Source: Candidatus Ryanbacteria bacterium RIFCSPLOWO2_12_FULL_44_26
GTDB taxonomy: Bacteria > Patescibacteriota > Minisyncoccia > Ryanbacterales > HO2-45-13
DNA: 64,000 nt
Assembly (NCBI GenBank): GCA_001821765.1
Contig: MHOA01000007.1
Coordinates: 9,565-73,564, forward strand
Direction: 5' to 3'
A model generated the notes under the pieces. The model searched no databases. It had not been told where the DNA came from and was given only the letters and a program-made list of their open reading frames with translations. Below, piece by piece: positions 17,437 to 59,840 of the stretch (its first letter is position 1; every line of letters starts with the position of its first letter). Position numbers and translations under genes: made by a program.

Positions 17437-17441
17437 CATGT

Positions 17442-30282: not shown

Positions 30283-30292
30283 TTAAATAACT

Positions 30293-30309: not shown

Positions 30310-30499
30310 TAAATTAAAATAATAGCGGTATGCGCAAAATACAATTTGTTCCGGGTGAGTATTATCATGTGTATAGTAGGGGAAACGATAAATGTACTAT
30401 TTTTCGTTCTCACTACGACTACGCACGGTTTTTATTTCTCATTCTTTACTTTCAGTCGCCGTTTTCGGTATATAACGTCGGCAATGCTGCTGCTTATTT

Positions 30500-30522
30500 T
30501 ATTAAACACCAGGTGTTTAATA
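30500..30522. repeat. palindromic repeat copy 2 (perfect 11-1-11 palindrome TATTAAACACC-A-GGTGTTTAATA) inside the RAYT CDS
   Basis: Encodes FIKHQVFNI within the transposase reading frame. Confidence 0.6.
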
Positions 30523-30996: not shown

Positions 30997-31011
30997 AAAC
31001 ACCAGGTGTTT
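30997..31011. repeat. palindromic repeat copy 3 (AAACACC-A-GGTGTTT) forming the last codons and stop of the RAYT CDS
   Basis: CAA ACA CCA GGT GTT TAA = QTPGV-stop. Confidence 0.6.
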
Positions 31012-31030
31012 AATTAATGAATATTGTTTA

Positions 31031-31765: not shown

Positions 31766-31772
31766 GGGTTTT

Positions 31773-32699: not shown

Positions 32700-32747
32700 T
32701 GCGCTAGCTCCTTATCAAAGGATATCGGGAATGATTGGTTAAACTTT

Positions 32748-36734: not shown

Positions 36735-36744
36735 ACTGTAAGAT

Positions 36745-38379
36745 ATGCATTTGAAGGATTATATCATTGAAAGCCTTTTTGTATTGCTTATTTTTATTCC
36801 CGCCTTTTTCTATGGCGGGCGCTCAAACACGGCACTATTCCTCTTTTTTGCTTTGTTAGCAGCGGCCGTTTTTTTTCAACGAAACTCGTTTATACCGCCC
36901 CACGTCCAGCATCCGTTTTGGATTTTTTTTGTTTTTCTTATATGGGTCATTATTCAAACAATTTTTTTCTCGCGCGTTCCTTACATATCTTCGCAGCTTT
37001 TTCTGCCGTTTGCCGGAGCCGGAATGCTGTATCTTGTTGGACTAAAAATCAGAAGAGCGGTTTTTGCCCCGATGCTTGTTGCCGGCGCCGCAGTGCTTGT
37101 TGTTATTGGCCTTATCTTTTTTATACAATCAGAAAACTTTTCATATCTGCGCCTTATATCAACGTTTTTCCATCATAACGGTTTTTCGGGATTTCTCATT
37201 TTACTAGCCACCCTTTCAGTATGGTTTGCGCTTTCCAATAGACCAAGCGTTCCAATACTTGCGTTCTTCGCGGCGTTTCTCATTATCACCGGATTTATTC
37301 TTACATTCTCGCGCGGGGGATACATCAGTTTGGGTGTTTCGTTACTTATATTTTTAATCATATTATGGAAGTCCTCGCTTGCAACGAAATGGTATATAGG
37401 GAAACTCGGGATTTTAGCACTCCTTATTATATTAAGCATCGGCGCCGCATATGGCATTTTTTCTTTCAAAGGAATACAAGCGCGGCGCGCGGCAATCGCG
37501 GAAGCAGGAACGGAAGAAAAAGTAAAAGTCGCCGCTCCCCACGAATTTGAAAGGCCCGGTGAGACTGGATTGACAGCGCGGCTTTATTATATGAGGCACG
37601 CGTTCCTTTTATTTAAGGAAAGGCCGCTTACCGGTTTTGGCCTCGGGTCGTTTGGCACGGAAGCCAGAAAAGTGCAAGACGATGTTCGTTTTTTCAGCAG
37701 TGATCCTCATAATCTCTATCTTCGGTTTGCTTCAGAACTCGGTGTTATTGGAATAGGCCTTTTCCTTATTTTTATTGTGTGGATACTCGCTATCGGTTTA
37801 CGGTACCTGTTGCAAAATAAGGAGGATCTGTTATACGGCGCTTTTTATGCGGGATTTGTTGGCATGCTGATACATAACGGCGGGGACGTTGATTTTCAAT
37901 TTCCTGCCAACATCTTTCTTCTTTTTGCTATAAGCTCGATTCTGTCAAATCCTGCTTCTCAATCAACCACGCTGGTGGCGCCGGCGCGGTTATGGAAGTT
38001 GGGAGTTTGGGGGAGTACAATAATCTTATTCATCGCCTCTGTATTCGTGTTGCTTGATAAAATCCCTGTTCAGCAAAACGAAAGAGTTGTTGAACTTCGC
38101 CGAGCGTATTTGTTAAGCCAGGAAGGCAGTTTTTCAGAAGCAGAAAAGTCATACAAAAAAGCGCTTCAGCTCGCACCTTACAAAGACCTTGAGCCTGTTT
38201 TTGGCCTTGTTGATATATATATGCAGGCAGGGCAATTGTCGCAAGCCAAATCCGTTGCAGAAGATGCTATAAAACGTTTTCCCGCTGAAGCGCTCGATGC
38301 TCCTATTTGGGTTGATCCGGCCAAAGAGGCAATAAAAAAACAGGTTCTGTTGCTGCAAAATTTTGTGGAAGGATTATAA
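36745..38379 (+). CDS. O-antigen ligase-like (Wzy_C) membrane protein with C-terminal TPR
   Basis: TFSRGGYISLG and FGLGSFG motifs typical of Wzy_C; ~12 TMs; C-terminal TPR-like repeats. Confidence 0.6.
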   Translation: MHLKDYIIESLFVLLIFIPAFFYGGRSNTALFLFFALLAAAVFFQRNSFIPPHVQHPFWIFFVFLIWVIIQTIFFSRVPYISSQLFLPFAGAGMLYLVGLKIRRAVFAPMLVAGAAVLVVIGLIFFIQSENFSYLRLISTFFHHNGFSGFLILLATLSVWFALSNRPSVPILAFFAAFLIITGFILTFSRGGYISLGVSLLIFLIILWKSSLATKWYIGKLGILALLIILSIGAAYGIFSFKGIQARRAAIAEAGTEEKVKVAAPHEFERPGETGLTARLYYMRHAFLLFKERPLTGFGLGSFGTEARKVQDDVRFFSSDPHNLYLRFASELGVIGIGLFLIFIVWILAIGLRYLLQNKEDLLYGAFYAGFVGMLIHNGGDVDFQFPANIFLLFAISSILSNPASQSTTLVAPARLWKLGVWGSTIILFIASVFVLLDKIPVQQNERVVELRRAYLLSQEGSFSEAEKSYKKALQLAPYKDLEPVFGLVDIYMQAGQLSQAKSVAEDAIKRFPAEALDAPIWVDPAKEAIKKQVLLLQNFVEGL

Positions 38380-44273: not shown

Positions 44274-44903
44274 ATGAGCAAACAACGGAAAGCACCAGGT
44301 AATAATTTTATACTTGCAGGGCTGGCAGTGATGATCGTGCTGATTCCAGTAAAAACGTTGGCGTTTTTTGAGAACATTGATGTGAATGATTTTTTTTCTT
44401 GGGGCGATGAAGCGATTGTGATCACGAATAAAGTAGAAGCCACTGCAAACACGGGAGGCAATACGGCTAAAGAAGGAAAGATAAACACGGGGAGCGCGAA
44501 AGCATCGGTCGTTGTGGAAACAAAGACAGACGATGACATAACAGAAGTTGATGTTGTGGTTACCGTTGAAGGTGAGGCAACTTCTACAAAGCAAGAGATA
44601 CGGGCAGGCAATGTAACGGTTCAAGCTGAAGCAGGAAGCACCGCATCCGTTGACGTATATGTGAAGGAGGTGAGTTCAAACAGAGAGGAGCAATTTTTTG
44701 ATGGAGCGTTGCCGTTACCGCTTACCGGAGAAGATGAGGCGGCGGATACTTCAGAAGAAGATATTGGTACGTCAGAGAAAAGCAATGAGTTACCAAAAGA
44801 AGCGCCGGCCGGCATTGATAAGAAAAAGGGATTTATTGGCCATATCATTGTTTCATTAACATCATTTATACAACATGTATTTTCATTTTTTACATTTACA
44901 TAG
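44274..44903 (+). CDS. secreted repeat protein (membrane-anchored N-terminus, acidic C-terminus)
   Basis: N-terminal TM/signal, ATANTGGNTAKEG...TGSAKASVV motifs related to the neighbouring genes. Confidence 0.5.
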   Translation: MSKQRKAPGNNFILAGLAVMIVLIPVKTLAFFENIDVNDFFSWGDEAIVITNKVEATANTGGNTAKEGKINTGSAKASVVVETKTDDDITEVDVVVTVEGEATSTKQEIRAGNVTVQAEAGSTASVDVYVKEVSSNREEQFFDGALPLPLTGEDEAADTSEEDIGTSEKSNELPKEAPAGIDKKKGFIGHIIVSLTSFIQHVFSFFTFT

Positions 44904-47751
44904 AGTTAAAAAAGAACGCGTACCCGCATTGCTTTTGATTGCAACGCTTTCAATAAGTTATTCGGTTTTACCTTTATTTTCCTTGTCTGCGGAAGGAACA
45001 GAAGGAGCGACAACAGATCAATCAACAGAGGAAGTTGTCACAACTAATGTCAATGAATCTCCAGCGCCTTTAGAAGAGCAAGGAAGTAATGAGGTGACGG
45101 CGGGAAATGCTTCCGAACCCAACGCAAGTGATGTAGGGGAAGATACAGTGATAGAAACGGGCGATGCTGTAGCCGGAGCTGATGTGGTAAACGAGGTAAA
45201 TACTAATACGATCAGTTCCGAAAATTCCGGCCAAGACGGGACAACCAACGAAGGTGACGGAGATGCTGGCGGTAGCGAAGAAGCAGTAAATGCCACTTCT
45301 ACCACTCCAGCAGCACAAGATCAGAATGACCCTTCTTTAAATACGGATTTTATAGAAAACAATGCGACATCCACCCCCCATCTGTCAGATAACATGCAAG
45401 ATCCTAACGCATCTACCCTTGATGTTTCTGATGGTGATATGGCTGCTACAAATACTGCCCCATTGATCATAACATCGGACAATACCAATGAAGCAGCAGT
45501 TTCAAATGCCGTAGAGACTGGAGCTGGAACGGGTTCCAATGAAGCAAGCAATAATGGAGGAAATGTCGTCATTGATACGGGCGATGCCTACGCCAGCGCA
45601 AATGTTGCCAATATTGTAAACAGCAACTTTATCGGCGCTGAAGGGTTTTTCAATATACTGACGGTGTTTGGAGCAATGTTTGGTGATATTGAGATGGAGT
45701 ATGGTAGTTCCGCGCTTTGCAGTACGTTCGGATGCGATATCTCGGTGCTGGATCTTTTAAATAGAAATAGTGCCTTGGTGGAGAATACCGTTGAGGCAAA
45801 TGCAGTGACCGGTGAGAATACCGCCAGCAACAATGGGGGGGATGTGACGATTGCCACCGGCGATGCTTATGCGGCCGCAAACGTCGTCAATTTTGTAAAT
45901 ACCAATGTCGTAAGCGCGCATTTTCTCTCGTTTATTTTAAACGCGTTTGGACCATGGGTCGGCGATTTAGTCCTTCCCCCCGCTTCCTCTTTTGAAGAAG
46001 AGGGGAGCTTAGGATGTCCCAACTGTTTTGGAGAGGTGAGTGTTGCCAACGACAATACGGTCGACATTGAAAATGGCGTTGCTGCCGGAGCCGATACCGG
46101 TTCTAACAGCGCAAATGGCGGCGATGGTGACGGCGGAACAATTACAACAGGAAATGCTGTAGCTGAAGCAAATGTGATGACTGTTGCAAATATGAATATT
46201 TTCGGGAACAACTCCATTCTTATTTTCATACGCACTCAAGGACGATGGAGCGGCAACATTTTTAGTCTTCCACCGGGTGTTGAGGTTATTAAAACCGACA
46301 GCGGTTTTATTCTTGACGGTATGGGTATTTTCTCAAATGCCTCAACCGTTTTGGGGAATGCTTCCGTTGCGCTGAACGCGGCGAATGAGAATAGCGCAAC
46401 AATTGTAAATCAAGTGAGCGCCAACGCATCAACTGGTTCTAATACGGCGAACGCCAATGGCGGAGAAACTTCCATCACTACGGGAAACGCCTATGCGGCT
46501 GCTAACGTGATAAATTTTGCAAACATCAATGTGGTAAGCCGTAACTGGCTGCTTGCCATTGTCAATGTTTTTGGAGACTGGAACGGAGATCTCGCGTTTG
46601 GAAGACCGGATTTATGGATTGGAGAATCTGCGACCCCTTCCTCGGTGCCGCTTGAAGCCGGTTCAACGATCGTATACACCTTTACCTATCGGAATAACGG
46701 CAATGCCGCTGCTACCGGGGTGAGTATCACCGATGTGTTTGGTCCCCACTTAACTTTCCTTGACAGCGGCGGCGGGAATACCGGTGTTGCGGGTCAAATA
46801 AGCTGGGATATCGGCACGGTTGAGCCGGGCGAGTACGGCACGGTTTCCTACACCATGCAAGTGCCCACGCCCAGCAACGTTCCGGAAGGCCAAAATAGGT
46901 GGGTGACGAATACCGTATCTATAACCGCGTTTGAGGATGATGTAAGTACAGCAGACAACACCGATTCGCTCACTTTTAATGTATACGAAAGAAATTACGA
47001 TGTTTCCAAAACTCATTACTATCCTGATTTGAAGATTGAGAAAAGAAGAATTGGAGGGGGGATTGTCCTTCCGGGGGATAAAGTGGATTACGTGGTCGCC
47101 ATCTATAATCAAGGAATTGGATCTGCATATGATGTTGTTGTTGAAGATATCATGAAGGATCCGAATGGCGGAGTTGTCAGCGAACAGATGTGGGATTTGG
47201 GAGAGGTGTTTCCTGACGAGCGGATTACCCTTGATTACACCATAGAGCTTGCATCAAATGCGCCATATGGAACATACATCAATATCGCTCAGGCAAAAGG
47301 GTTGATGCCGTATGGAGGAGCGATGCTTCCTTATTATTCAGGCTATGGAACACAGGAACTTGAAGTGGGAGGCGTTGGAGGAGGTGAAACCGTTGAATTC
47401 GTGCCCCCACCAGAAAGCGTTCAACAGGATAGCGAGACGGTATTGGCGCTTGACGAAGCAAGTGTTGGCGAAACCCCTGTTCCCATCGTTGCTGCTGTTG
47501 TAGCAGGCGCAGATGGCGGGGGAGAAAACCCCGAGGGCAATGGATTTGAAAAGGTGTTTTTTGACCACGTGAATGTGGCTCAAGTGCACTCCTATCCTGA
47601 ATATATCATTGAAAAGAAGCATAAAGGCCTTGCTATGGCGGCCGTTCCGTTCCTCTTTGAATCTGCTTGGTCGGCATTGGCAGCTTTATTAGCGCTTCTT
47701 TTCGCGCTTTTCCTGTATTGGTTGATGCGCCAAAGAGAGATCAGGAAATAG
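44875..47751 (+). CDS. large surface protein with five ~40-aa ANTG.N.A.NNGG...TGDA.A.ANV.N.VN.N repeats, two DUF11-like domains and a C-terminal hydrophobic anchor
   Basis: Signal peptide; repeats at aa ~90, 215, 300, 385, 500; DUF11 (TIGR01451-like) segments PLEAGSTIVYTFTYRNNGNAAATGVSITDVF... and GDKVDYVVAIYNQGIGSAYDVVVEDI...; C-terminal AAVPFLFESAWSALAALLALLFALFLYWLMRQREIRK. Confidence 0.6.
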   Translation: MYFHFLHLHRVKKERVPALLLIATLSISYSVLPLFSLSAEGTEGATTDQSTEEVVTTNVNESPAPLEEQGSNEVTAGNASEPNASDVGEDTVIETGDAVAGADVVNEVNTNTISSENSGQDGTTNEGDGDAGGSEEAVNATSTTPAAQDQNDPSLNTDFIENNATSTPHLSDNMQDPNASTLDVSDGDMAATNTAPLIITSDNTNEAAVSNAVETGAGTGSNEASNNGGNVVIDTGDAYASANVANIVNSNFIGAEGFFNILTVFGAMFGDIEMEYGSSALCSTFGCDISVLDLLNRNSALVENTVEANAVTGENTASNNGGDVTIATGDAYAAANVVNFVNTNVVSAHFLSFILNAFGPWVGDLVLPPASSFEEEGSLGCPNCFGEVSVANDNTVDIENGVAAGADTGSNSANGGDGDGGTITTGNAVAEANVMTVANMNIFGNNSILIFIRTQGRWSGNIFSLPPGVEVIKTDSGFILDGMGIFSNASTVLGNASVALNAANENSATIVNQVSANASTGSNTANANGGETSITTGNAYAAANVINFANINVVSRNWLLAIVNVFGDWNGDLAFGRPDLWIGESATPSSVPLEAGSTIVYTFTYRNNGNAAATGVSITDVFGPHLTFLDSGGGNTGVAGQISWDIGTVEPGEYGTVSYTMQVPTPSNVPEGQNRWVTNTVSITAFEDDVSTADNTDSLTFNVYERNYDVSKTHYYPDLKIEKRRIGGGIVLPGDKVDYVVAIYNQGIGSAYDVVVEDIMKDPNGGVVSEQMWDLGEVFPDERITLDYTIELASNAPYGTYINIAQAKGLMPYGGAMLPYYSGYGTQELEVGGVGGGETVEFVPPPESVQQDSETVLALDEASVGETPVPIVAAVVAGADGGGENPEGNGFEKVFFDHVNVAQVHSYPEYIIEKKHKGLAMAAVPFLFESAWSALAALLALLFALFLYWLMRQREIRK

Positions 47752-47787
47752 TTGATTTTTTTGCGCAATAGTAGTAAGGTAAGAGGC

Positions 47788-50334
47788 ATGAAAAGACCAC
47801 TGTTTTTAGCATTATTGTTCGTTGGCATTTTCATTTTCTCTGCCGGCTCGGCTGAAGGCGTTTTGAGAGGGGATACAGAACGCCTTGTTCAAACGGAACG
47901 GCCTTTGTATCGCGCAGGTGAAGTCATTATCAAACGGAAAGGAGAAGCATGGTTTGAGCGCGTATCTGTTGCTTCTGGAGAAGATGTTACAGGAGCCCTT
48001 CGGCGTTTTCGAGGGAGAAGTGACATTGAATATGCAGAGCCAAACTATATTGCCCGTGCATTTTTTACACCCAACGACCCTTATTATTCATATCAGTGGC
48101 ATTTAGATAATGCCGTTTACGGCGGCATTGAGACTGAACAGGCTTGGGATATTGCGCGAGGGAACGGGGTGACGATTGCCGTTGTTGACACCGGCGTTGC
48201 ATATGAAAATAACGGGTCTTTCTATAAAAAAGCGCCAGATCTTGTGAATACCGCTTTTACTGCCGGCTTCGATTTTGTAAATAACGATACACACCCGAAC
48301 GATGACAACGGTCACGGTACTCACGTAACCGGCACGCTTGCACAAAGCACTGATAACAATACCGGCGTTGCAGGAGTTGCCTTTCAAGCAAGCATTATGC
48401 CGGTCAAAGTGCTTGATAGTCGGGGGAGCGGCACGTATGCGGACGTGGCGGATGGCATTCGATGGGCGGCTGATAACGGGGCTACGGTTGTTAATCTTTC
48501 GCTTGGCGGACCGACGCCCGCAACGTATTTAGAAAGCGCTATACGGTACGCTTATGAGAAAGGAGTTACCATTGTAGCGGCATCAGGAAATGACGGCGCA
48601 GGTGTTGTGTCGTATCCGGCCGCGTATGATGATTATGTCATTGCCGTTGGCGCGACGCGTTTTGATGAAGCGCGCGCTCCATATTCTAATTACGGCTCTG
48701 CTCTTGATATTGTCGCTCCCGGCGGAGACCTTTCAGTTGATCAAAATGGTGATGGCTACGGCGACGGAGTGTTACAGCAAACATTCAACAACCGTCCCTA
48801 CAGCTTCGGCTACTTCTTTTATCAGGGGACCTCAATGGCCACACCGCATATTGCAGGCGTTGCGGCGCTTGTGATCTCCAGCGGCATTGCGACAACTCCC
48901 GATCAAGTGCGGCTGGCTTTACAGTCAACGGCTGATGACTTGGGAGATTCTGGCCGAGATGATATGTTTGGCTGGGGAATCGTTAACGCCGGAGCAGCTC
49001 TTGGCTATACTACAGGGCCGGCAGATAATCCTCCCTCGGTTGCGATAACATCTCCTGCTGCAAACGCAACCGTTGAGGGCACGATCAACATTTTAGCCGC
49101 TGCGACGGATGACAACGGAATTGACAAAGTTGATTTTTATGCTGACGGCGCACCTATTGGCGCTGATACTGCTTTTCCATATGAAATTTCGTGGAATTCA
49201 GCAAGTGTTGCTGATGGTTCGCACGCGCTGAAGGTTGTTGCCGTTGATACTGTTGGTCAAACCGCAGAGCATTTGATATATGTTATTGTTGACAACATTA
49301 ATAATCCGCCGGTTGCTAACGCAGGCCCCGATCAGTCATTGATGGATTCCAATGATGACGGCGTTGAATCAGTTGCCCTCAACGGCTCCGGTTCCAGCGA
49401 TCCGGATGGCGGAATTGCGGCGTACGAATGGAGGGAGGGATCGAATATTCTTGGAACGTCGCCAATCATTACTCCAACTTTTGTGGTGGGCATTCATGTA
49501 GTAACACTGACGGTTGTTGATGATAAAGGCGCGGCAGGAAGTGATGATGTTACTGTGGAGGTATTGGCATATCAAAACATGTTGCCTGTTGCCAACGCCG
49601 GATCTGATAAAACGGTTACTGACAATGACAATAATGGTTCGGAGCCGGTGACCTTGGACGGCTCTGGTTCCTACGATCCGGATGGTTCTATTGTTGCCTT
49701 TGAATGGAAAGAAGGGCCGAGTGTTTTTGGAACATCAGCGCTGATAGTAAAAGACTTTGCAGTAGGCATTCATACAGTAACGCTTACTGTGACCGATGAT
49801 AAAGGGGCGGCGTCTTTAGATGAGGTTGTCGTTACGGTAAACCCAAAGCCGAGCGGGCCGACCACGATGTTTTTTGATGATTTTGAAGGGGGAAACCCCG
49901 CTACTCACTGGACAGAGTCAGGTGATGGCAACTGGACTATTGAGCAACCGGCAGAGCGCAATATTTCCGGCCACGCCTCCGGCAATCTCGTTGCACACGC
50001 TGATCAGTGCAGCAGCGCTCAAGGGTGTGTTTTGACGCTGAAGGACGCCATTGATCTAAGCGGTTATTCAAGCGCATCGCTTCAATTCTGGAGGTATGTG
50101 GATCGCTCGCTTGATAATGGTGAGTTTTTAAAAGTGGAGCTTTACAATGGGAGTTCGTGGGACACGGTTTTTTACTGGACGTACCGATCGGGCGCCGATG
50201 ACAAGTGGTACTATAAAACCGTTGATCTTTCCGGTTATCTGGTGAATACCTTTAAAGTGCGCTTTACGTCAAAAGAAAACAGCAACGGCGAAGACACTGA
50301 AATTGACGACGTGCTCATTGAAGCATTGCTATAG
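47788..50334 (+). CDS. subtilisin-like serine protease (peptidase S8) with tandem PKD-like domains and a C-terminal beta-sandwich domain
   Basis: RBS AAGGTAAGAGG; signal peptide; catalytic triad motifs VAVVDTGV (Asp), HGTHVTGT (His), GTSMATPHIAGVAAL (Ser); three repeats beginning P(P/V)ANAG(P/S)D. Confidence 0.8.
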   Translation: MKRPLFLALLFVGIFIFSAGSAEGVLRGDTERLVQTERPLYRAGEVIIKRKGEAWFERVSVASGEDVTGALRRFRGRSDIEYAEPNYIARAFFTPNDPYYSYQWHLDNAVYGGIETEQAWDIARGNGVTIAVVDTGVAYENNGSFYKKAPDLVNTAFTAGFDFVNNDTHPNDDNGHGTHVTGTLAQSTDNNTGVAGVAFQASIMPVKVLDSRGSGTYADVADGIRWAADNGATVVNLSLGGPTPATYLESAIRYAYEKGVTIVAASGNDGAGVVSYPAAYDDYVIAVGATRFDEARAPYSNYGSALDIVAPGGDLSVDQNGDGYGDGVLQQTFNNRPYSFGYFFYQGTSMATPHIAGVAALVISSGIATTPDQVRLALQSTADDLGDSGRDDMFGWGIVNAGAALGYTTGPADNPPSVAITSPAANATVEGTINILAAATDDNGIDKVDFYADGAPIGADTAFPYEISWNSASVADGSHALKVVAVDTVGQTAEHLIYVIVDNINNPPVANAGPDQSLMDSNDDGVESVALNGSGSSDPDGGIAAYEWREGSNILGTSPIITPTFVVGIHVVTLTVVDDKGAAGSDDVTVEVLAYQNMLPVANAGSDKTVTDNDNNGSEPVTLDGSGSYDPDGSIVAFEWKEGPSVFGTSALIVKDFAVGIHTVTLTVTDDKGAASLDEVVVTVNPKPSGPTTMFFDDFEGGNPATHWTESGDGNWTIEQPAERNISGHASGNLVAHADQCSSAQGCVLTLKDAIDLSGYSSASLQFWRYVDRSLDNGEFLKVELYNGSSWDTVFYWTYRSGADDKWYYKTVDLSGYLVNTFKVRFTSKENSNGEDTEIDDVLIEALL

Positions 50335-50490
50335 GCGCCTTTTTACGCTTGATTGTGGGGCTTGCTATTTCCTTCATAAAGCAGTAAGGTTACGGTGGTG
50401 TTCGTTCCGCCAAAGCAGACTGCTTAAAAGCAAATCGTTTGCTGGGCAAGGTGCTTTGGGAGCGAATTGAAACAAATATATAATATTAGT

Positions 50491-50730: not shown

Positions 50731-52281
50731 ATGGTGGATAAGATTATCCAATATTCAAAAAGGTATTTGTTTGAGTGGAGCATATTTGTTGCACAACTCA
50801 AGGCGACGGTTATTGCGGTATTCCCATTTCTTAGATCCATTCATATATCCGAGGAGGTTTCCCTAGATTTTCAAAACAGCGATGATTATCTTTTTCTTGC
50901 TTTCGTTCACAGTGTTAAAAAACACATACATATTGAGACCGTTTCGCTGATGACTGTGGTGTTCACGCTGTTCTTTGGGGCCGTGTACGGCGCGGTACAA
51001 TTTTTTCACGTTCCGGGACTGGTTGTGATATCCAGCATTGTTGCTTTTTTTTATTTGGTCTTGATGGCGTTTAAACTCTGGATTGTTTATCACGGCGTGT
51101 CCTATCCGCTGATCGATTTTTCGAAAAAGGAGATTGAGCATATAAACGACGATGATTTGCCTCTCTATACCATATTAATTCCTCTATACAGAGAAGCCGA
51201 AGTAGCTGACCAAGTCATAAAAGCGATGTCCGCCATAGATTATCCAAAAGACAAGCTGGATATTATCATCACACTAGAAAAATATGATGCGGAAACTCTT
51301 TCAGCTCTTAAAAAGTCAGGTCTGCCTTCCCATTTCAAGACGCTGATACTGCCCGATGTATGTCCTAAAACAAAGCCGAAAGCGCTGAATGTCGCTTTTC
51401 TTGAGGCAATGGGTGAGTTTTTAGTCATCTACGATGCTGAAACTGTTCCTGATGCGGATCAGCTTAAAAAAGCGTATCTTGCGTTTCGATCACATCCGGA
51501 TATTGCGTGTTTCCAAACCCGCCTTGAACATTACAATGCAAACCATAATATATTGACAAAACTTTTTAATACCGAATACTCTTTCCACTACGATCTCTTT
51601 TTGCCCGGTTTGCAAAAGCATAATTTTCCCGTTCCGCTTTCAGGTCACAGCATTCACTTCAGGCGTCACGTCATAGAGAAGATAGGAGCGTGGGATCCGT
51701 ATAATGTAACGGAAGATTGCGATATCGGAATTCGGCTGTATCGTCAGGGGTTTAAGACGGGAATGATGAATTCAGTGACTTATGAAGAGGCCACCTGTAC
51801 GTTAAAAAGCTGGACTATCCAAAGAACAAGATGGATGAAGGGGTTTATCCAGACAAGCATTGTGCATTTGAGGCATCCGTTGCGCTTTAAACAGGAAGTG
51901 GGAGGGTGGAGAAATTTTTTCGTTTTTTTATTAACCGTGCCCGGGACGGTGGCGGTTAACATTCTTAATTTAGTGCTATGGGTGATTCTTGTCATATGGC
52001 TTGTCATGCACTCTTCGTTCATTCAAACGCTCTATCCGCAGCCGGTCCTTTATATGTCAGGGGTTGCATTTATCGTCGGCAGTTTCATATTTACGTACCT
52101 CAATCTGCTTGGGGCCTACCGGAGGAAAAAGTTTTATTTGGTAAAGTACGGCATGCTCACGCCAATATATTGGGTGATGATTGCTATAGCAACCACACGC
52201 GCAGCATTACAGATTATAAAGAATCCTCACGGATGGGAAAAGACAAAACACGGCTCGCACTTATCAAAACAATCCGGCTAG
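50731..52281 (+). CDS. processive family-2 glycosyltransferase (cellulose synthase / CslA / NodC-like), membrane-integrated
   Basis: D, DxD (YDAE), TED (VTEDCD) and QRTRW (QxxRW) motifs; TM helices at both ends. Confidence 0.7.
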   Translation: MVDKIIQYSKRYLFEWSIFVAQLKATVIAVFPFLRSIHISEEVSLDFQNSDDYLFLAFVHSVKKHIHIETVSLMTVVFTLFFGAVYGAVQFFHVPGLVVISSIVAFFYLVLMAFKLWIVYHGVSYPLIDFSKKEIEHINDDDLPLYTILIPLYREAEVADQVIKAMSAIDYPKDKLDIIITLEKYDAETLSALKKSGLPSHFKTLILPDVCPKTKPKALNVAFLEAMGEFLVIYDAETVPDADQLKKAYLAFRSHPDIACFQTRLEHYNANHNILTKLFNTEYSFHYDLFLPGLQKHNFPVPLSGHSIHFRRHVIEKIGAWDPYNVTEDCDIGIRLYRQGFKTGMMNSVTYEEATCTLKSWTIQRTRWMKGFIQTSIVHLRHPLRFKQEVGGWRNFFVFLLTVPGTVAVNILNLVLWVILVIWLVMHSSFIQTLYPQPVLYMSGVAFIVGSFIFTYLNLLGAYRRKKFYLVKYGMLTPIYWVMIAIATTRAALQIIKNPHGWEKTKHGSHLSKQSG

Positions 52282-52292
52282 ATTAAAAACGT

Positions 52293-54116
52293 ATGCTAAA
52301 GCGCACCACACAAACAACGTTGTCAGCAAAACTAGCAAGAACAGAGGTTCTGTTGTTTGCTGCTGTATTGGTTATCGGATCGCTGTATGCATGGTATGTC
52401 TACGAGCTTGGGTTTACCTTGTTTCTTGTTGACCAAAATGCCCATTTAAATATTTCACGCCTTATCATTGACAGTTTAACGCCTGGAATCAGTCAGATCG
52501 GTTTTTGGCCCCCGCTTCTCCATATACTCATGATTCCGTTTTCGTTCATTGATGTGCTGTATCAAAGCGGTCTTGCCGCCCCTTTTGCGCTGGTGCCGGT
52601 TTTAGGAGTGGGGGCGCTTTTTCTTTATAAACTGCTGTTTCTTTTTACAAAAAGAAAAGCAGCAGGTGTTCTGGGCGCGTTTCTGTTTGTTTCTAATCCG
52701 TACGTGCTTTACTACTCTGTAACGCCAATGACCGAAGCGCTTTTCATATCATCCCTCTTTATTGTCGCGTATTTTCTTGCACACTGGTTGGTTACAGAGC
52801 AATTTTCTTCACTATTATATCTCGGTATATCTATAACGCTTGCAGGCCTTGCCCGCTTTGAGGGATTTCTGCTCGTTCCGATCGCGGTAGTTATTGTTGT
52901 TCTAAAACTAGTATTGCAAAAGAAACACTATCATGAGATTGAGGCGCTGCTTATTTTGTTCGGGCTGATAGCGGTGCTCGGAGGCGTCTTTACTGTTATG
53001 TACGGATGGGTATTTACGGGTGATCCGTTTGCATTTCTCAATAACCCCTTTTCCCCCCAAGCTCAACAGCGGGACTACTTTTTACCATCCAAACACAGCA
53101 TTGTAAATTCATTTCTGTATCTTCTTTACGCTTTATACCACCTGATAGGAAAAACCTTAGGTCTGCTTGCAATAGGTGCATTTGCGGCGCTGCTGTTCTT
53201 GCTTAGAAACAACCGTTTTAATTTTATTGCCGTAAGTTTGGTGCTGATAAGCCCCTTCTTTTTTGACTGGTTTGCCCTTTTTCAGGGCAGCGCTCTTATT
53301 TATGTCCCGGACCTGCCTCCCTTCGGAGAGTTTGCGAACGAGCGATATGGTCTTTATCCGTTCGGGTTCACGGTCTTTGCGGCAGGAATGTTTGTATATT
53401 TTTTGTATGAGCGGGCGCTGTCGCAAAGGGTACTTTGGCCTGTGACTGCAATCGCGACGGGCTTGATCATGGGGCTTCTTTTTTGGAATAGCGCCTTACT
53501 TTTTTATAACGTAACCTATGCGGACACGTTTAAGGTTATCCAAATGTCCGGTAAGGGTTCATTAATACCGGATCAGAGAGAACTTGCGTTGGCGTTGAGG
53601 GGTCAGTATGATTACGGGAAGATTTTGCTTATGCGCGCTATGCAGAACCACATAACCGTTACGGCACAAATTCCGCTCAAGAGCTATATTGTTGAAAGCA
53701 ATTACCCTTACTTCGATGAAGCGCTGGAACTGCCGTGGTTTTTTGCGCGATGGGTGGTTATGTATAACCCCGACATAGCGGTTGTGGAGTGGAGGAAGGA
53801 AAACGAACGCATTTCGGCTCGCTGGGCAAATTCGGATGAATTTCGTGAAGCATATGAGCTTGTTTTTGAAAACGAATCCGAACGTTTATACCGTTTAAGG
53901 GAAGATGTTGTAAGAAAAAAAGCCGCGATGATTGGTATGGATGCATCAACTATTCCTTCATTGAATCCTGATATGGTTCGGTGGGAAACAAGGACGGTAT
54001 ATGCTGAAATTACAGGGAAGTTGAGAGTTTACTATGAGGGGATCATGGTGAAAGCTGACGAAGCAAAGACGTTAGGTTTTGAGATGCAAACCGATGAGGA
54101 TGCTGAAGATAATTGA
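52293..54116 (+). CDS. GT-C fold-like polytopic membrane protein (PMT/ArnT-like putative glycosyltransferase)
   Basis: ~12 TM helices over the first 420 aa, then a soluble C-terminal domain; architecture only, no catalytic motif confirmed. Confidence 0.4.
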   Translation: MLKRTTQTTLSAKLARTEVLLFAAVLVIGSLYAWYVYELGFTLFLVDQNAHLNISRLIIDSLTPGISQIGFWPPLLHILMIPFSFIDVLYQSGLAAPFALVPVLGVGALFLYKLLFLFTKRKAAGVLGAFLFVSNPYVLYYSVTPMTEALFISSLFIVAYFLAHWLVTEQFSSLLYLGISITLAGLARFEGFLLVPIAVVIVVLKLVLQKKHYHEIEALLILFGLIAVLGGVFTVMYGWVFTGDPFAFLNNPFSPQAQQRDYFLPSKHSIVNSFLYLLYALYHLIGKTLGLLAIGAFAALLFLLRNNRFNFIAVSLVLISPFFFDWFALFQGSALIYVPDLPPFGEFANERYGLYPFGFTVFAAGMFVYFLYERALSQRVLWPVTAIATGLIMGLLFWNSALLFYNVTYADTFKVIQMSGKGSLIPDQRELALALRGQYDYGKILLMRAMQNHITVTAQIPLKSYIVESNYPYFDEALELPWFFARWVVMYNPDIAVVEWRKENERISARWANSDEFREAYELVFENESERLYRLREDVVRKKAAMIGMDASTIPSLNPDMVRWETRTVYAEITGKLRVYYEGIMVKADEAKTLGFEMQTDEDAEDN

Positions 54117-54141
54117 CGATATCAGTAATATCATTATCACG

Positions 54142-57100
54142 ATGAGTACAAATATATCTACACCACTGACAAAAACGTTCGTACGCCCGCTTTGTGCTGT
54201 AGCATTTTTTGTGTTTTTCGGTCTTGTCTTTGCCGGTGTTGCAGATGCGCATGAGATGCGCATCAACACCGGAGGCCTCTCCTTCGTTGATACCGGCGGC
54301 AACACTTGGGAAGCCGATGCGCATTTCAACACCGGCAACACCTTCTCCACCGCTGCTGCGATCAGCAACACGGCCGATGACCTGCTCTATCAGACCGAGC
54401 GGTGGGATGATGCGCCCGCCCCAGAGCTTGCGTATGCCATTCCCGTAGCAAACGGCGATTACATGGTTACCCTCCACTTTGCAGAAATCTGGTCAGGAGC
54501 TTTTTCCATCGGTGCACGGGTGTTCGATGTAGGGATGGAAGGAATCACCGTCTTAGACAATATTGATATCTATGCCGAGGCCGGAGCAAACACCGCGCTT
54601 ACAAAAACCTTTACTGCCACCGTCACCGACGGCGCATTGGACATACTTTTTACCCATGTAGTCCAGAATCCCAAGATCGCTGGGATTGAGGTGATGGAAC
54701 ATGAGGAAGAGACGCACCTTATGCATGTGGTGGCGGGTCCTGATCAAACCGTAGTGGATGATGACGGTGATGGCGCCGAATTAGTCACGCTGGATGCAGG
54801 TGATTCCCACACCCATGCGTTTGGCGAAACAATTGTAAGCTGGGTTTGGGCGGAAGGCGTCGAAACCATTGGCACAACTGAAGTCATCACCGCACCTTTT
54901 TCGGTCGGTGTCCATGAAATTTTGCTTGTTGCAACAGATAGTGCAGGAAATACCGGCAGCGATGCGGTAATGGTCACAGTGCTTGCGCCGAACGATGTAC
55001 CCGGCCTTGCCGGCTATTATTTTGATTTTACCGGCACCCCGCTTACATCCATACCGGATGTAAGCGCCCTGCAAGCCGACTGGGCGCAAATAGAGCCAAA
55101 TCTTAATTATGATGCGACATCAGGAAATTTTGCTGGAACTCCTTTTAGCGAAAACTTTGCCGCCCGCTATACGGGATTTATAGATATTCCGGTTGGCGGA
55201 TCATACGGCTTCGCGATAGAAAGCGATGACGGCTCGCGGCTTTTTATAGACGACGCGCTTTTGATCAACAATGACGGACTCCATGCGATGAAGAAGATGT
55301 CCGCGGTCAGCGCGTTATCTGCCGGGATGCATAAGGTTATGATTGAATTTTTTGAGGCAAGCGGGCAAGCAGGATTGAAATTTTACTGGACGCCTCCTGC
55401 GATAGCAGAGCAGATTGTTCCTTCAAGCGCGTTGTTTTATGAATATCCAGCGCTCCTCCCCGTCATCAATGTTATTGATCCTCTTTCAGGGCCCGAGGTC
55501 GGCGGCAATAAAGTAACGATAAACGGTTTTGGGTTTATTTTTTCTGTAGATGAAACAACGGTCAATTTCGGGGGAACAGCGCTTACGGGGAGCAGCCTTA
55601 CGATTATTGACGAAAATACTATAGAGGTTATTGCACCTGCGGGAATCGGAACGGTAGCGGTAAGCGTGGCAACGCCAAATAGCGTAAGCAAAGGAGAAAA
55701 TTATCTTTATATCGAAGATGCTCCGCCGCCCGTTCTGTTTACGAGCGGGACGCTCTTTTCAGGTATTAATGGCCCGACAAGCCTTGCTTTTGGACCTGAC
55801 GGCAAGCTCTATGTAGGAACGCAGTTCGGGACAGTATGGGTGTTAACGCTTGATGATAATCTCAACGTCATTAATTCCTATTCTACCGGCATCATTCAGG
55901 ATTCAGAGTCGACGTTTCGGAGTATTCTTGGCATCGCCTTTAATCCTTTAGATGATCCTTTAAACCCAAAGCTCTATGTGGCGCACAGCTTTCTTTTTCA
56001 TGGAGACGATATTGATTTTTATAAAGGAAAAATAAGCACCTTGAGCGGTCCCGGTTTAAGCGTTAAAGAAGACATTATCACGGGTCTTCCGGTTTCCGAT
56101 CACGATCACGGCATGAACGGCATGGAATTCGGAATGAAAGGGGAAATGTATATTCAAGTCGGAGGCAATACCAATGCCGGTGTCCCGGGAGTGCTCAGTT
56201 CTTCGGGGGAGCTGGATGAAGGGGCGCTTTCAGCGGCCACGCTGGTTGCCCATCTTGAGCGGGAAAATTTTGATGGGAATGTCACTCATAACTCAGCGGG
56301 GGAGCAAACTGGAGGGTTTGATGTTGAGGTTTTTGCTTCCGGTTTTCGCAACCCCTATGATTTGGTTCTGCATTCTAACGGAGGGCTCTATGGAACTGAC
56401 AACGGCCCGAACTTCGGGTATGGAGGGAAATCAACCGGGTGCGCGGCAGAAGGCCCTGACCCTGAAGAGCCTGACGAGCTCAATCTCATTGTTGAGAATG
56501 GATATTATGGCCACGCAAATCGTCTGCGCGGAGCAAGCGATCCTCGGCAGTGCGTGTGGCGCAGTATCTTTGAGCCGAGCGACGCGCAATATACCGCTCC
56601 CATGACAACATTCACCCCATCTACCAATGGCATTACCGAATATCGCTCAAACACCTTCGGCGGGCAATTAAAGGGCCATCTGCTTGCCTCGCGCTGGGAA
56701 GGGGAGCTCTATGACGTTGAGCTTTCAGGTGATGGCAAGAGCGTGGCAAGCCAAAACATCTTAACGCCGCAGGGGGGTCTTGATGTAACGACTGGTCCTG
56801 ATGGAACGATTTTCATCGCCCAACATCTGGCTGGTAAGATTATTTATCATAAGCCCAGTGAACCCGTCCCTTCCGTTCCTCATATTATATCGGCAACACC
56901 CTACCGAGGTCCGCTGACCGGAGAACGAACAGCGCTTATTACCGGTTCTGGGCTTAATGCGGGCGGTATGGCCATGGTCACGTTTGGAGGAAAAAATTGT
57001 CCAACCGTTTCTGTTACATCAACAGCTATAAAGTGCATGGTTCCAGCCGGCGACGCGCCGGGAGCGGTAGACATAGTGGTAACTACCGCAGGCATGACCG

Positions 57101-58557
57101 CCGTTCTTCCCGGGGGATATACCTATATGGATTCAACACTTCCGCCTCCGCCGCCCTTGGTTGGCAAGTGGTTTGCCAAGGTGCCGCTTCCCATTGCAAT
57201 CGGTGAGATGTCGGCTGCGGCGATTGGAGATTTTGTTTATGTGCTGGCTGGTCACGGCGAAGGCGCATATAACGATACGCTCTACCGGTATGATACGATG
57301 CAAAATGTCTGGGAGAGTATGGCGCCGCAGACGGTAGCCCCGTTGGCGGATCACGCAGCTGTTGAGGTTATTAACGGGAAGATATATATGTTTGGCGGGA
57401 TTTTACCTCCGGGGGAAGGAGAATCAAACACACTTGCGATTTATAATCCTGTCACGGATGCATGGTCGCTTGGTTCACCCCTCATGAAAGAAGGCGTGCC
57501 GTATGGGCTTGGCTCGGTTGCATCCGGCGTTATTGGCGGAAAGCTCTATATTGCGGGAGGCATCCACGATGGGAATCTTGCCGGGAATCCAACTGACACG
57601 TTCGTGTATAATCCGGTGGCGGACATATGGACGGAACTTGCCCCAATGCCGTCCGGCAGGAATCACGCCGCTGGCGTGGGTTACAGCGGCAAGTTCTACG
57701 TTTTTAGCGGCAGGCAAGGAGAGAATGATCCAAACGAATTGACGTTTGACGATTCGTACGTGTACGATCCATCCTCTAATACATGGGGAATGCTCGCTCC
57801 CATTCCGACGCCAAGAGGCGGCATGGGAACAGCTGTTGCGCTGCTGGACGAACTTTTTGTAATTGGCGGGGAGGGCGGAGGACCGTCGTCCGGGACGTAT
57901 CCGAATGTTGAAGCGTATAATCCCGTAACAAACACATGGCGCGCACTGCCGGATCTCCCCACGCCCCGGCATGGTATTTATCCCGTGCTGGTTGGGGATG
58001 ATATCCATGTGGTCGCCGGTGGGACAATGGAGGGTCATTCCCATAGCGCAATACACGAAATGTACAATCCCTACGGTATTGATGAGCACCAAGCGCCATC
58101 AGCAGGCATCCGCATCAACACCGGCGGCCTCTCCTTCGTTGATACCGGCGGCAACACTTGGGAAGCCGATGCGCATTTCAACACCGGCAACACCTTCTCC
58201 ACCGCTGCTGCGATCAGCAACACGGCCGATGACCTGCTCTATCAGACCGAGCGGTGGGATGATACCCCAGCTCCGGAATTAGCGTATGCTATTCCGGTAG
58301 ACAATAGTCATTACGAAGTGACCCTCCATTTTGCCGAAATCTGGTCGGGCGCCTTTGCGGTTGGCGCGCGCGTGTTTGATGTGGCCATTGAAGGCGCCAC
58401 GGTTCTAGACGACTTTGACATTTATGCCGAAGCGGGAGCAAACACCGCGCTTACGAAAACCTTCCATGTTGAGGTCTCCGATGGCACGCTGAACATCCTC
58501 TTTTCCCGCGAAGTCCAAAATCCCAAGATCGCTGGGATTGAGGCGGTCAGGCACTAA
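54142..58557 (+). CDS. giant secreted carbohydrate-active multidomain protein: malectin - PA14 - IPT/TIG - sugar-dehydrogenase-like propeller - IPT - Kelch propeller - malectin
   Basis: Signal peptide at the internal Met (MSTNISTPLTKTFVRPLCAVAFFVFFGLVFAGVADA). Malectin-like domains at both ends (INTGGLSFVDTGGNTWEADAHFNTGN...LYQTERWDD...LHFAEIW...RVFDV...NPKIAGIE). PA14 (GLAGYYFDF...SDDGSRLFIDDALLINND...GLKFYW). Kelch repeats (GKIYMFGG, GKLYIAGG, GKFYVFSG). Confidence 0.65.
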   Translation: MSTNISTPLTKTFVRPLCAVAFFVFFGLVFAGVADAHEMRINTGGLSFVDTGGNTWEADAHFNTGNTFSTAAAISNTADDLLYQTERWDDAPAPELAYAIPVANGDYMVTLHFAEIWSGAFSIGARVFDVGMEGITVLDNIDIYAEAGANTALTKTFTATVTDGALDILFTHVVQNPKIAGIEVMEHEEETHLMHVVAGPDQTVVDDDGDGAELVTLDAGDSHTHAFGETIVSWVWAEGVETIGTTEVITAPFSVGVHEILLVATDSAGNTGSDAVMVTVLAPNDVPGLAGYYFDFTGTPLTSIPDVSALQADWAQIEPNLNYDATSGNFAGTPFSENFAARYTGFIDIPVGGSYGFAIESDDGSRLFIDDALLINNDGLHAMKKMSAVSALSAGMHKVMIEFFEASGQAGLKFYWTPPAIAEQIVPSSALFYEYPALLPVINVIDPLSGPEVGGNKVTINGFGFIFSVDETTVNFGGTALTGSSLTIIDENTIEVIAPAGIGTVAVSVATPNSVSKGENYLYIEDAPPPVLFTSGTLFSGINGPTSLAFGPDGKLYVGTQFGTVWVLTLDDNLNVINSYSTGIIQDSESTFRSILGIAFNPLDDPLNPKLYVAHSFLFHGDDIDFYKGKISTLSGPGLSVKEDIITGLPVSDHDHGMNGMEFGMKGEMYIQVGGNTNAGVPGVLSSSGELDEGALSAATLVAHLERENFDGNVTHNSAGEQTGGFDVEVFASGFRNPYDLVLHSNGGLYGTDNGPNFGYGGKSTGCAAEGPDPEEPDELNLIVENGYYGHANRLRGASDPRQCVWRSIFEPSDAQYTAPMTTFTPSTNGITEYRSNTFGGQLKGHLLASRWEGELYDVELSGDGKSVASQNILTPQGGLDVTTGPDGTIFIAQHLAGKIIYHKPSEPVPSVPHIISATPYRGPLTGERTALITGSGLNAGGMAMVTFGGKNCPTVSVTSTAIKCMVPAGDAPGAVDIVVTTAGMTAVLPGGYTYMDSTLPPPPPLVGKWFAKVPLPIAIGEMSAAAIGDFVYVLAGHGEGAYNDTLYRYDTMQNVWESMAPQTVAPLADHAAVEVINGKIYMFGGILPPGEGESNTLAIYNPVTDAWSLGSPLMKEGVPYGLGSVASGVIGGKLYIAGGIHDGNLAGNPTDTFVYNPVADIWTELAPMPSGRNHAAGVGYSGKFYVFSGRQGENDPNELTFDDSYVYDPSSNTWGMLAPIPTPRGGMGTAVALLDELFVIGGEGGGPSSGTYPNVEAYNPVTNTWRALPDLPTPRHGIYPVLVGDDIHVVAGGTMEGHSHSAIHEMYNPYGIDEHQAPSAGIRINTGGLSFVDTGGNTWEADAHFNTGNTFSTAAAISNTADDLLYQTERWDDTPAPELAYAIPVDNSHYEVTLHFAEIWSGAFAVGARVFDVAIEGATVLDDFDIYAEAGANTALTKTFHVEVSDGTLNILFSREVQNPKIAGIEAVRH
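54255..54690 (+). repeat. intragenic direct repeat copy 1 (malectin domain), partner at 58107-58542
   Basis: First ~160 nt and last ~35 nt are nearly identical to the partner copy; the middle is ~75% identical. Confidence 0.7.
58107..58542 (+). repeat. intragenic direct repeat copy 2 (malectin domain)
   Basis: See copy 1. Confidence 0.7.
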
Positions 58558-58646
58558 AGCGCAAATAATCTGATACACTGTCTTTGTTCTCTAGAGGAGA
58601 GAACTGTTTTGTCCATCAAGAAACATGATCATTTCGGGAAAACAAT

Positions 58647-59840
58647 ATGCAGTTTAAGAGCCCCGTAAGACTATTTATACTCCTTTTTGGTTTTATATTC
58701 ATTTTTATCGCTGTTTCAAGCGTAGTTATTGCTGTTTCTTTTTTTAATATGCTGTTGGATACCAAAAAAGAGAATAATACGCCAGCTATTTCGTATCACA
58801 GCACAGATCAGGATTCTGTTGATTCCAAATATCAAGAAGCGCCAGCTATAAAGGAAGAGAACCAGAGAACAGAACATGAGGATCAATCAGTGAAGGGGCT
58901 TGCATTGTCGTTTCCGCCGCCCCCTTCCATTCTTAGAAAACCGCTGACCGGAGAGGCATGTGAGGCGGCGATCAACTCCTCTCCCTTTTACCGTGATCCG
59001 AAATCTCAAGCCGCAAAAGCGCAAATGGCGCTTGCCACAGAGGGACGCACGGAAGACGCCGATGTATTGAGGGAAATTTCCTGTTTTCCGCAGGCTGCAT
59101 GGATTATCGGAGGTTCCCCGGCCGAAGCGCGCGCCCGCGTGGAAGAAATAAACGCTAGAGCAGCGGATCAAAATAAAATTGCGCTTTTTGTTCTTTATAA
59201 TATTCCTTCACATACGACGCCCGCATGGCGAAGCGGTTTAAAGAACGAAGTCTATCGCGATTGGGTTGGCGCCGTTGCCCAAGGAATTGGCATAAGACGG
59301 GCATGGATTGTTCTTGAGCCGGATGCGCTCCCGCTGGCCACCGGCCTTAGTTTAAACGATCAGGCAATTCGGTTAGGAGAAATACGCGATGCCGTTGAAA
59401 TACTAAAAAAACATTCTCTAAACGTTCGGGTGTATCTTGATGCAGGGCACAGTTTCTGGAAAACGCCGGATGCAATTTCAGCGTTGCTGCTGAAGGCGGG
59501 AATCGCGAGAGCGGACGGATTTATCGTGAATGTATCAAACTATCAATTACTCTCCGATGAGCTGATATTTGGTCGCGCGGTTTCGGCGCGCACGGGCAAC
59601 ACGTCATTTATTGTGGATACAAGCCGCAACGGAAACGGCCCTCCCAGCGATAAAGAATGGTGCAATGCGCGGGGACGGGCATTGGGACTGAAGCCAACAA
59701 TCAAGACTGGCGAGCCGTTGGTGGACGCTTATCTTTGGATAAAGCCCCCGGGCGAGTCGGATGGAGATTGCAACGGCGGCCCGCCAGCAGGAAAATTCTG
59801 GCTTGAGTATGCGCTTGATTTGGCACGGAACGCCCTTTAA
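58647..59840 (+). CDS. glycoside hydrolase family 6-like protein (cellulase fold), membrane-anchored; DRDC catalytic-acid motif apparently replaced
   Basis: N-terminal TM; IVLEPDALPLA, YLDAGHSFW, GFIVNVSNY, WCNARGRALGLKP, WIKPPGESDG align with GH6 signature blocks; the segment aligning to the YDLPDRDC box reads YNIPSHTT. Confidence 0.65.
   Translation: MQFKSPVRLFILLFGFIFIFIAVSSVVIAVSFFNMLLDTKKENNTPAISYHSTDQDSVDSKYQEAPAIKEENQRTEHEDQSVKGLALSFPPPPSILRKPLTGEACEAAINSSPFYRDPKSQAAKAQMALATEGRTEDADVLREISCFPQAAWIIGGSPAEARARVEEINARAADQNKIALFVLYNIPSHTTPAWRSGLKNEVYRDWVGAVAQGIGIRRAWIVLEPDALPLATGLSLNDQAIRLGEIRDAVEILKKHSLNVRVYLDAGHSFWKTPDAISALLLKAGIARADGFIVNVSNYQLLSDELIFGRAVSARTGNTSFIVDTSRNGNGPPSDKEWCNARGRALGLKPTIKTGEPLVDAYLWIKPPGESDGDCNGGPPAGKFWLEYALDLARNAL

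Follow-up and report, generated by a model that had tools for sequence, protein, structure and literature searches.

A BcsA-fold synthase paired with a GT-C-fold membrane glycosyltransferase in a candidate surface-glycan locus of a Ryanbacteria genome

The glycanases of known cellulose-synthase operons belong to GH8 (the BcsZ family), GH6 (the CslZ family) and GH5 (the CcsZ family) (PMC8892547; PMC9040799; 10.1101/837344). Here we analyzed a locus in which a GH6 gene lies close to a synthase gene, in a 64,000-nucleotide (nt) stretch of the genome of Candidatus Ryanbacteria bacterium RIFCSPLOWO2_12_FULL_44_26 (assembly GCA_001821765.1, contig MHOA01000007.1, positions 9,565 to 73,564; the whole stretch is referred to here as the window). 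The Streptomyces CslA-GlxA-CslZ system (with LpmP) resembles this locus in having a membrane processive GT2 and a small membrane-tethered GH6 without a carbohydrate-binding module (CBM), and in belonging to a Gram-positive-type envelope, so that in both cases the polymer must cross peptidoglycan. The Bcs system (BcsA-BcsB-BcsZ) contains the characterised synthase nearest to the window GT2 by both sequence and fold, BcsA, with which it has the D, DxD-type, TED and QxxRW motifs in common. Clostridial CcsABZHI is likewise of the Gram-positive type, with a membrane-tethered endoglucanase and a membrane partner other than BcsB (10.1101/837344; PMC8892547). In the three-component glycosylation systems ArnC/ArnT, GtrB/GtrC, CsbB/YfhO and PgfS/PgfM, the GT-C enzyme has an aspartate in its first external loop, as does the GT-C protein described here.

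The locus consists of four consecutive genes, all on the + strand between 50731 and 59840, as stated in an initial annotation of this DNA, which had interpreted them as the same functional trio as in Streptomyces with an added membrane protein:

50731-52281, + strand, GT2 gene (516 aa)
52293-54116, + strand, GT-C gene (607 aa)
54142-58557, + strand, giant-protein gene (1471 aa counted from ATG)
58647-59840, + strand, GH6 gene (397 aa)

The gaps between these co-oriented genes are 11, 25 and 89 nt, and the reading frame of the giant protein is open from a TTG at 54079. On balance, we lean slightly towards reading the locus as a system in which a synthase makes a β-1,4 surface glycan, most probably a cellulose-like glucan, that is then processed outside the cell, with a GT-C enzyme as the partner of the synthase.

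The first gene product matched the Pfam family Glyco_trans_2_3 (1.4e-26). Its residues D186, D235-x-E237, E328-D329 (TED) and Q364-R365-x-R367-W368 were invariant in an alignment of 23 family members, as was a C-terminal W502-x-K504-T505-x-H507. The AlphaFold2 model (pLDDT 83.8) placed two N-terminal and about four C-terminal transmembrane (TM) helices around a cytosolic GT-A domain, and Foldseek ranked BcsA first (1.5e-16), followed by hyaluronan synthases, PcManGT, Chs1 and CesA. A search of PDB sequences matched only synthase-type enzymes (E. coli BcsA, 6e-12). By its sequence and model, then, the protein is a membrane-integrated synthase of the processive type with the BcsA fold and not a DPM1-like enzyme, as first annotated, with the refinement that its second acidic motif reads DxE; processivity itself is predicted. 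The protein differs from BcsA in having six TM helices rather than eight and no match to PilZ in Pfam, and it stops 19 residues past the last helix.

The nearest relatives of this synthase in protein searches were all from Patescibacteria (the candidate phyla radiation, CPR). Its best NCBIfam matches were PgaC/IcaA (6e-23), an XrtG-associated glycosyltransferase and CelA (2e-19), all far under the curated cutoffs, which places it in an unnamed family. In pairwise comparisons it was 27.5% identical to E. coli BcsA (E 1e-16) and 24% identical to PgaC. Orthology with Streptomyces CslA was rejected on a score of 22.6% identity over 310 aa (E 0.003, CslA of locus L170) compared with that for E. coli BcsA. 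NfrB was also rejected as the nearest synthase, with about 20-23% identity, an E value of 0.002 and only the C-terminal motif in common; this motif, W[DE]KTxH, occurs both in E. coli NfrB (L175, 5942-8179) and in the GT2 family. A third candidate, CcsA of the clostridial system, is a PilZ-bearing BcsA orthologue (10.1101/837344) and was set aside for that reason.

The second gene product had only a sub-threshold PMT_2 match in Pfam (2.8e-4), with no STT3 or PMT family match above threshold, and a search of PDB sequences returned no matches, so that only the fold search was informative. The AlphaFold2 model was of high confidence (pLDDT 92.3, pTM 0.90), and every Foldseek match with E < 1e-3 was a GT-C enzyme; the neighbors included STT3 (2.6e-7), DPY19, AglB, ArnT, ALG9/12, PglB, PMT4 and Emb. 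These matches to the model confirmed the protein as a GT-C-fold membrane glycosyltransferase, in agreement with the GT-C-like assignment made earlier. Residue D47, invariant in 36 aligned homologs, is part of a 'DQNAH' motif that closely follows TM1 and opens the first external-loop helix; an extracytoplasmic C-terminal domain spans aa ~415-600. The protein was 100% identical to a Candidatus Ryanbacteria hypothetical protein, which, with the Patescibacteria relatives of the GT2, marks the host as a CPR bacterium. Among the matches listed for this protein, 31 of 120 homologs were fused to GH8 and 8 of 120 carried LysM.

To describe conservation, we use a non-redundant set of 16 CPR loci, called close loci here, in which the GT2 shares 50% or more identity with that of the window; a metagenome scan added at least three close loci. 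A GT-C gene was present in all 16, immediately 3' of the GT2 gene in 15 and 5' of it in the remaining one (L005). The GT2 and GT-C pair is thus, from these sequence comparisons, the conserved core of the locus, and the GT-C protein is an "obligate" partner. BcsB, in contrast, was found neither in the window nor in any close CPR locus. In the Streptomyces system there is no GT-C at all, and the clostridial system differs as well, its CcsB being a 2-TM protein and not a GT-C, its glycanase a GH5, and its cluster including acetylation genes that are absent from the window unit. GH8 was the commonest glycanase of the sister loci (10/16), GH6 occurred in 7/16, one of them as a 92-aa remnant, and one or the other was present in 12/16, which supports the association of a glycanase with the pair. 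A large secreted protein containing a glucose/sorbosone dehydrogenase (GSDH) domain was encoded in 4/16. Many GT2, GT-C and GH6 clusters agree exactly in the length of their longest contig and are thereby implied to sit on shared contigs.

The complete order of GT2, GT-C, GSDH-containing giant and GH6 was repeated in a Candidatus Wildermuthbacteria locus (L172), and the first three genes recurred in the same order in L007, with GH6 degraded; these recurrences indicate that the gene order is not due to chance. The degraded gene in L007 is a 92-aa open reading frame (ORF; 17304-17582) with the central part deleted, which retains the TM anchor, 'YLDAGH' and the C-terminal 'PPGESDGTCNGGPPAGKFW', and shows that the glycanase can drop out of the cluster.

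At 38-47% identity, the GT2 family was also found in Chloroflexota, Actinomycetota and Bacillota, where the GT2 gene was often followed by GT-C genes. Most of these synthases from outside the CPR (L009, L017 and many of L009-L160) had an N-terminal MshEN cyclic di-GMP receptor domain; CPR family members had neither MshEN nor PilZ. BcsB was encoded within 7 kb of the GT2 gene in 18 of the wider-family loci (e.g., L009, PF03170, 2.4e-71). About half of the CPR synthases carried an extra N-terminal GT-A domain, and other loci encoded a separate GT2 of 313-334 aa; both were closest to polyprenyl-phosphate sugar synthases, namely ArnC, PgfS, AglJ and dolichyl-phosphate hexose transferases. In Amnibacterium endophyticum (L014, 11342-14650), a single 1102-aa protein encoded directly 3' of the synthase gene fuses a GT2 resembling ArnC, and so an undecaprenyl-phosphate (Und-P) sugar synthase, to GT-C and GH5. 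We found no description of a GT2/GT-C/glycanase architecture or of a CPR cellulose-type synthase in the searchable open-access literature, which is weak evidence.

By analogy with these ArnC/PgfS-like domains, fused or adjacent in relatives, the donor used by the GT-C enzyme would most likely be a polyprenyl-phosphate-linked sugar, although a gene for a polyprenyl-phosphate sugar synthase was absent from the 64-kb window. The three-component systems show the same coupling of GT-C to an ArnC/PgfS/AglJ-like synthase, which in the relatives is fused to the processive synthase or to GT-C, or encoded next to them; in none of those systems, however, is the GT-C linked with both a processive synthase and domains of cellulase families. 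The likeness raises an alternative, in which the locus makes no polymer and the GT2 instead builds a lipid-linked or lipid glycan, in the manner of PcManGT, a minimal mannosyltransferase with the cellulose-synthase fold, with the GT-C transferring the sugar to proteins or teichoic-acid-like acceptors in the style of oligosaccharyltransferases, PMT or YfhO; the giant protein could then be a substrate. The top structural neighbors of the GT-C protein are indeed oligosaccharyltransferases, PcManGT is among the matches of the GT2 (6yv7; 1.3e-8 by sequence, 3e-11 by fold), and the ArnC/PgfS/AglJ-like domains accompany the pair in many relatives. Protein glycosylation, however, gives no role to GH8 or GH5 fused to GT-C or to BcsB adjoining the synthase, the GT2 has six TM helices together with the full QxxRW and C-terminal loop motifs of translocating synthases, and the GT-C lacked any STT3 or PMT match above threshold. 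We consider such a glycoconjugate pathway rather improbable.

The fourth gene product is a GH6 protein (Pfam, 3.8e-51) whose best solved relative was M. tuberculosis Cel6 (1uoz, 3.4e-57). It has a single N-terminal hydrophobic segment (aa 2-39) and no CBM in Pfam. The first ~40 matches were CPR proteins, followed by Streptomyces GH6 proteins of 335-350 aa. One of these (P0295, in L170) is encoded next to glxA and cslA with Band_7 (StlP-like) and LPMO10 genes nearby, and on this basis was taken as the CslZ orthologue. The window GH6 was 47% identical to it over 295 aa (E 7e-82), with a TM anchor where CslZ has a lipobox. As judged from sequence, the window protein is thus genuinely CslZ-like and membrane-anchored, and this part of the initial annotation stood. 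This closeness to Streptomyces CslZ suggests that Gram-positive-type lineages have either exchanged or inherited their synthase-associated glycanases.

In GH6 enzymes, the catalytic acid is the aspartate of the EPD motif, and two further aspartates belong to the RDC motif (D175 in TrCel6A, D79 in TfCel6A) and to the C-terminal ESDG motif. The window GH6 retained the catalytic-acid motif as 'LEPDAL', as well as 'DAGH' and 'PGESDG'. Where the canonical sequence is 'P[HQ]RDCG', however, it reads 'PSHTTPAW', so that the RDC aspartate, which Streptomyces CslZ keeps, is absent. A P[DS]H[ST][ST]xxW-like replacement was present in all of the ~40 closest CPR GH6 clusters (P0241-P0281), which keep EPD and ESDG; RDC was kept in another CPR GH6 group (L004, L006, L163, L166, L168) and in Streptomyces. 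A one-off decay of the active site was rejected on this evidence, and the loss of RDC is, from the alignments, a clade-wide change.

The GH6 also bears on whether the locus is catabolic, with the GH6 and the giant protein, through its lectin and GSDH modules, degrading environmental or host cellulose and the adjacency of GT2 and GT-C being incidental. GH6, PA14, malectin and pyrroloquinoline quinone (PQQ)-type dehydrogenase modules are common in biomass-degrading systems, and biomass degradation is the usual annotation of CPR glycoside hydrolases. This GH6, however, is membrane-anchored without a CBM, and its closest relatives outside the CPR are synthase-associated CslZ proteins. The GT2/GT-C synteny is moreover kept across CPR classes, with GT-C physically fused to glycanases, and no sugar transporter or β-glucosidase is encoded in the four-gene unit. 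A catabolic function appears very improbable.

The third gene encodes a protein with one N-terminal hydrophobic segment (aa 11-38), predicted from its sequence to be secreted or wall-associated. Its order of parts is signal peptide, malectin, PA14, TIG, GSDH-type propeller, TIG, six-blade Kelch propeller and malectin, and Pfam reproduced every domain named by the initial annotation (Malectin twice, 6.6e-61; PA14; GSDH, 2.6e-14; Kelch, 5e-34) and also matched TIG twice:

54250..54726, + strand, malectin domain 1 (~83% amino-acid identity to malectin domain 2)
55003..55425, + strand, PA14 carbohydrate-binding domain (aa 288-428; Pfam PA14 3.5e-19)
55771..56826, + strand, GSDH-type beta-propeller, soluble PQQ glucose/sorbosone dehydrogenase-like (aa 544-895; Pfam 2.6e-14)
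57154..58101, + strand, six-blade Kelch propeller (aa 1005-1320; Pfam 5e-34)
58108..58536, + strand, malectin domain 2 (Pfam; 300-nt direct repeat of 54256-54555)

Over 300 nt, the malectin-coding segments 54256-54555 and 58108-58407 are direct repeats of each other at 85% DNA identity, and this suggests that part of the gene was recently duplicated or underwent gene conversion.

The Kelch propeller had been taken as of the galactose-oxidase type, and hence as the GlxA of the locus. Its six blades were found as described, with six blade motifs between aa 1005 and 1320. The same domain contains no cysteine, so that the Tyr-Cys cofactor is impossible, and Pfam gave no match to the GlxA, Glyoxal_oxid_N or E-set families (PF21110, PF07250 and PF09118), all three of which GlxA of L170 has. 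Its alignment with that GlxA by BLASTP (E 0.013) reflected repeat-level likeness alone, and the best solved relatives were designed SAKe six-blade propellers and KEAP1/KLHL. The galactose-oxidase or GlxA reading of the domain was accordingly rejected. With it, a homolog of the complete CslA-GlxA-CslZ system with Kelch as a radical copper oxidase becomes very unlikely. It would account for the processive GT2, for the 47% identity between the GH6 and that of the CslZ locus, and for the presence of an oxidoreductase-like GSDH module in the giant protein. The GT2 is nevertheless not a CslA orthologue, the GT-C that is the constant partner here has no counterpart in the Streptomyces trio, the Kelch domain occurs in no related locus, and no lytic polysaccharide monooxygenase (LPMO) was found among the window genes scanned. 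Of the initial interpretation, the processive GT2, the GT-C protein and the CslZ-like GH6 therefore hold, and GlxA, CslA orthology and the equivalence of the trio do not.

Neither Kelch nor malectin was found by tblastn in 169 related loci. GSDH-type propellers recurred at the same position in L001/L165, L007, L171 and L172, and after GH6 in L004, usually in proteins that also carry PKD, PA14 and LamG modules; PA14 was found in the giants of L007, L165 and L171. We therefore rejected the giant as a whole as a conserved component of the cluster. The window GSDH aligned with residues 19-250 alone of soluble glucose dehydrogenase (sGDH; 1c9u, 3.2e-7), and in this partial alignment its 'DHDHG' and 'GFRNP' match the catalytic His144 and the PQQ-binding Arg228/Asn229. 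By analogy, and as inference only, the GSDH module would be the candidate for any oxidoreductase with a role like that of GlxA in this locus.

Several relatives from the Paceibacterota have a further synthase module between the GSDH giant and the variant GH6 (L165, 18006-21566; L171, 6212-8970; and the P0262 locus). Here a Chitin_synth_2-like GT2 is encoded together with a UDP-glucose dehydrogenase and a polysaccharide deacetylase; one of the modules also includes a heparinase II/III domain. The pairing is HasA/HasB-like, and by this analogy suggests a second polymer, of the uronic-acid or amino-sugar type.

Several observations weigh against the reading of the locus that we favor. The identity of the sugar is drawn from context alone, and by HMM (hidden Markov model) score the GT2 is roughly equidistant from synthases of poly-N-acetylglucosamine (PNAG) and of cellulose; its W[DE]KTxH motif is also found in E. 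coli NfrB. GH8 includes chitosanases, and together with the LysM domains on 8 GT-C homologs and the cleavage of chitin and peptidoglycan by CslZ, this makes a GlcNAc-type polymer or wall remodeling possible. Absence of the RDC aspartate makes the hydrolytic competence of the GH6 uncertain, and the window GSDH is just ~23% identical to the GSDH domains of relatives. Parts that recur elsewhere in the family (GH8, BcsB, MshEN, GH5, the small GT2 and an Und-P-sugar synthase gene) were all missing from the 64-kb window. The four genes form an operon-like unit, an operon status that comes only from their short gaps in the sequence.

Some of these points would fit the same machine making another polymer, either a β-1,4 amino-sugar chain (chitin-, PNAG- or ManNAc-like) or a mixed-linkage glucan, with GH6 and GH8 acting either on this other product or on peptidoglycan, so that the chain can pass the wall. 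Such a product would agree with PgaC/IcaA as the top NCBIfam match ahead of CelA, with the motif in common with NfrB, with LysM on GT-C homologs, with the remodelled active-site motif of the GH6 clade and with the range of CslZ, which hydrolyses chitin and peptidoglycan besides cellulose (PMC9040799). In both pairwise score and fold, however, no characterised synthase was nearer than BcsA, BcsB adjoins the synthase in the 18 distant loci, three cellulase families (GH8, GH6 and GH5) have been recruited, and no deacetylase or amino-sugar gene lies within the four-gene unit of the window. We regard a different polymer as unlikely, though the likeliest of the alternatives, and prefer a cellulose-like glucan.

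For a cellulose-like product, the GT2 would polymerize a UDP-sugar on the cytosolic side and thread the chain through its own TM channel, as BcsA and hyaluronan synthase do. The GT-C enzyme, next to the synthase, would work on the chain as it comes out on the far side of the membrane, and its likeliest reaction is to add or attach sugar from a polyprenyl-phosphate donor; the enzyme may also place a glycanase at the exit, because a glycanase is fused to GT-C in many relatives. The membrane-anchored, CslZ-like GH6 could then trim or release the chain, or open the wall for it. With its malectin, PA14 and Kelch modules the giant protein would bind the glycan and organize it, and its GSDH-type propeller, the module that recurs in relatives, may oxidize sugar ends.

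A broader proposal, which we offer tentatively and rate as possible but short of probable, is that the GT2/GT-C pair represents a type of synthase-dependent β-glycan secretion in which a BcsA-like synthase is obligately coupled to a GT-C transferase. Drawing on a polyprenyl-phosphate sugar, this transferase would decorate, prime or anchor the growing chain, and it would bring a glycanase of its own. As part of the same proposal, this type would be widespread in Patescibacteria and extend across Chloroflexota, Actinomycetota and Bacillota, and the CPR GH6 clade without RDC would have changed its mechanism or substrate.

The four-gene unit is flanked by 396 nt upstream and 308 nt downstream. One promoter-like site in the upstream gap matched 10/12 consensus positions:

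50456..50484, + strand, promoter-like site TTGGGA-17-TATAAT in the 396-nt gap 5' of the GT2 gene

The counts of promoter-like and terminator sites in the region showed no excess over the shuffled expectation, so the scan provides no evidence for an operon, and this site is a weak lead only. Just 5' of the cluster, 44875-50334 encodes a 958-aa DUF11/CLIPPER-repeat protein and an 860-aa subtilase (Big_7, PKD, MAM); a DUF11/CLIPPER protein is also encoded near the cluster in L172 and L007.

Elsewhere in the window, a gene for a class-A penicillin-binding protein with transglycosylase and transpeptidase domains (18182-20257, + strand) converges on one for a 2213-aa bacterial alpha-2-macroglobulin (20254-26895, - strand), and the ends of the two ORFs overlap by 4 nt. 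At 28106-38379 lies a polysaccharide cluster of low GC content (0.38-0.40). Besides an ABC-2 permease and an ATPase, whose genes are separated by an IS200-like Y1 transposase ORF (30330-31013), it encodes two GT4 enzymes, methyltransferases of the FkbM type and others, a Wzy_C/O-antigen-ligase-like protein with TPR repeats and an initiating transferase (Bac_transf).

CPR bacteria are tiny, mostly uncultured and host-dependent cells whose surface chemistry is little known. A conserved cluster for a cellulose-like glycan would, if true, provide a concrete candidate for a CPR envelope or attachment matrix. The processive synthase is constantly coupled here to a GT-C enzyme, often one fused to a glycanase, which is not so in the Bcs, Ccs, Pga/Ica and CslA systems, and this coupling would be a new kind of accessory arrangement among systems that secrete polysaccharide by means of a synthase. 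If the broader proposal above is correct, many GH6 and GH8 'cellulases' of CPR bacteria would be biosynthetic accessories of a surface glycan, possibly one used in host attachment, rather than catabolic enzymes.

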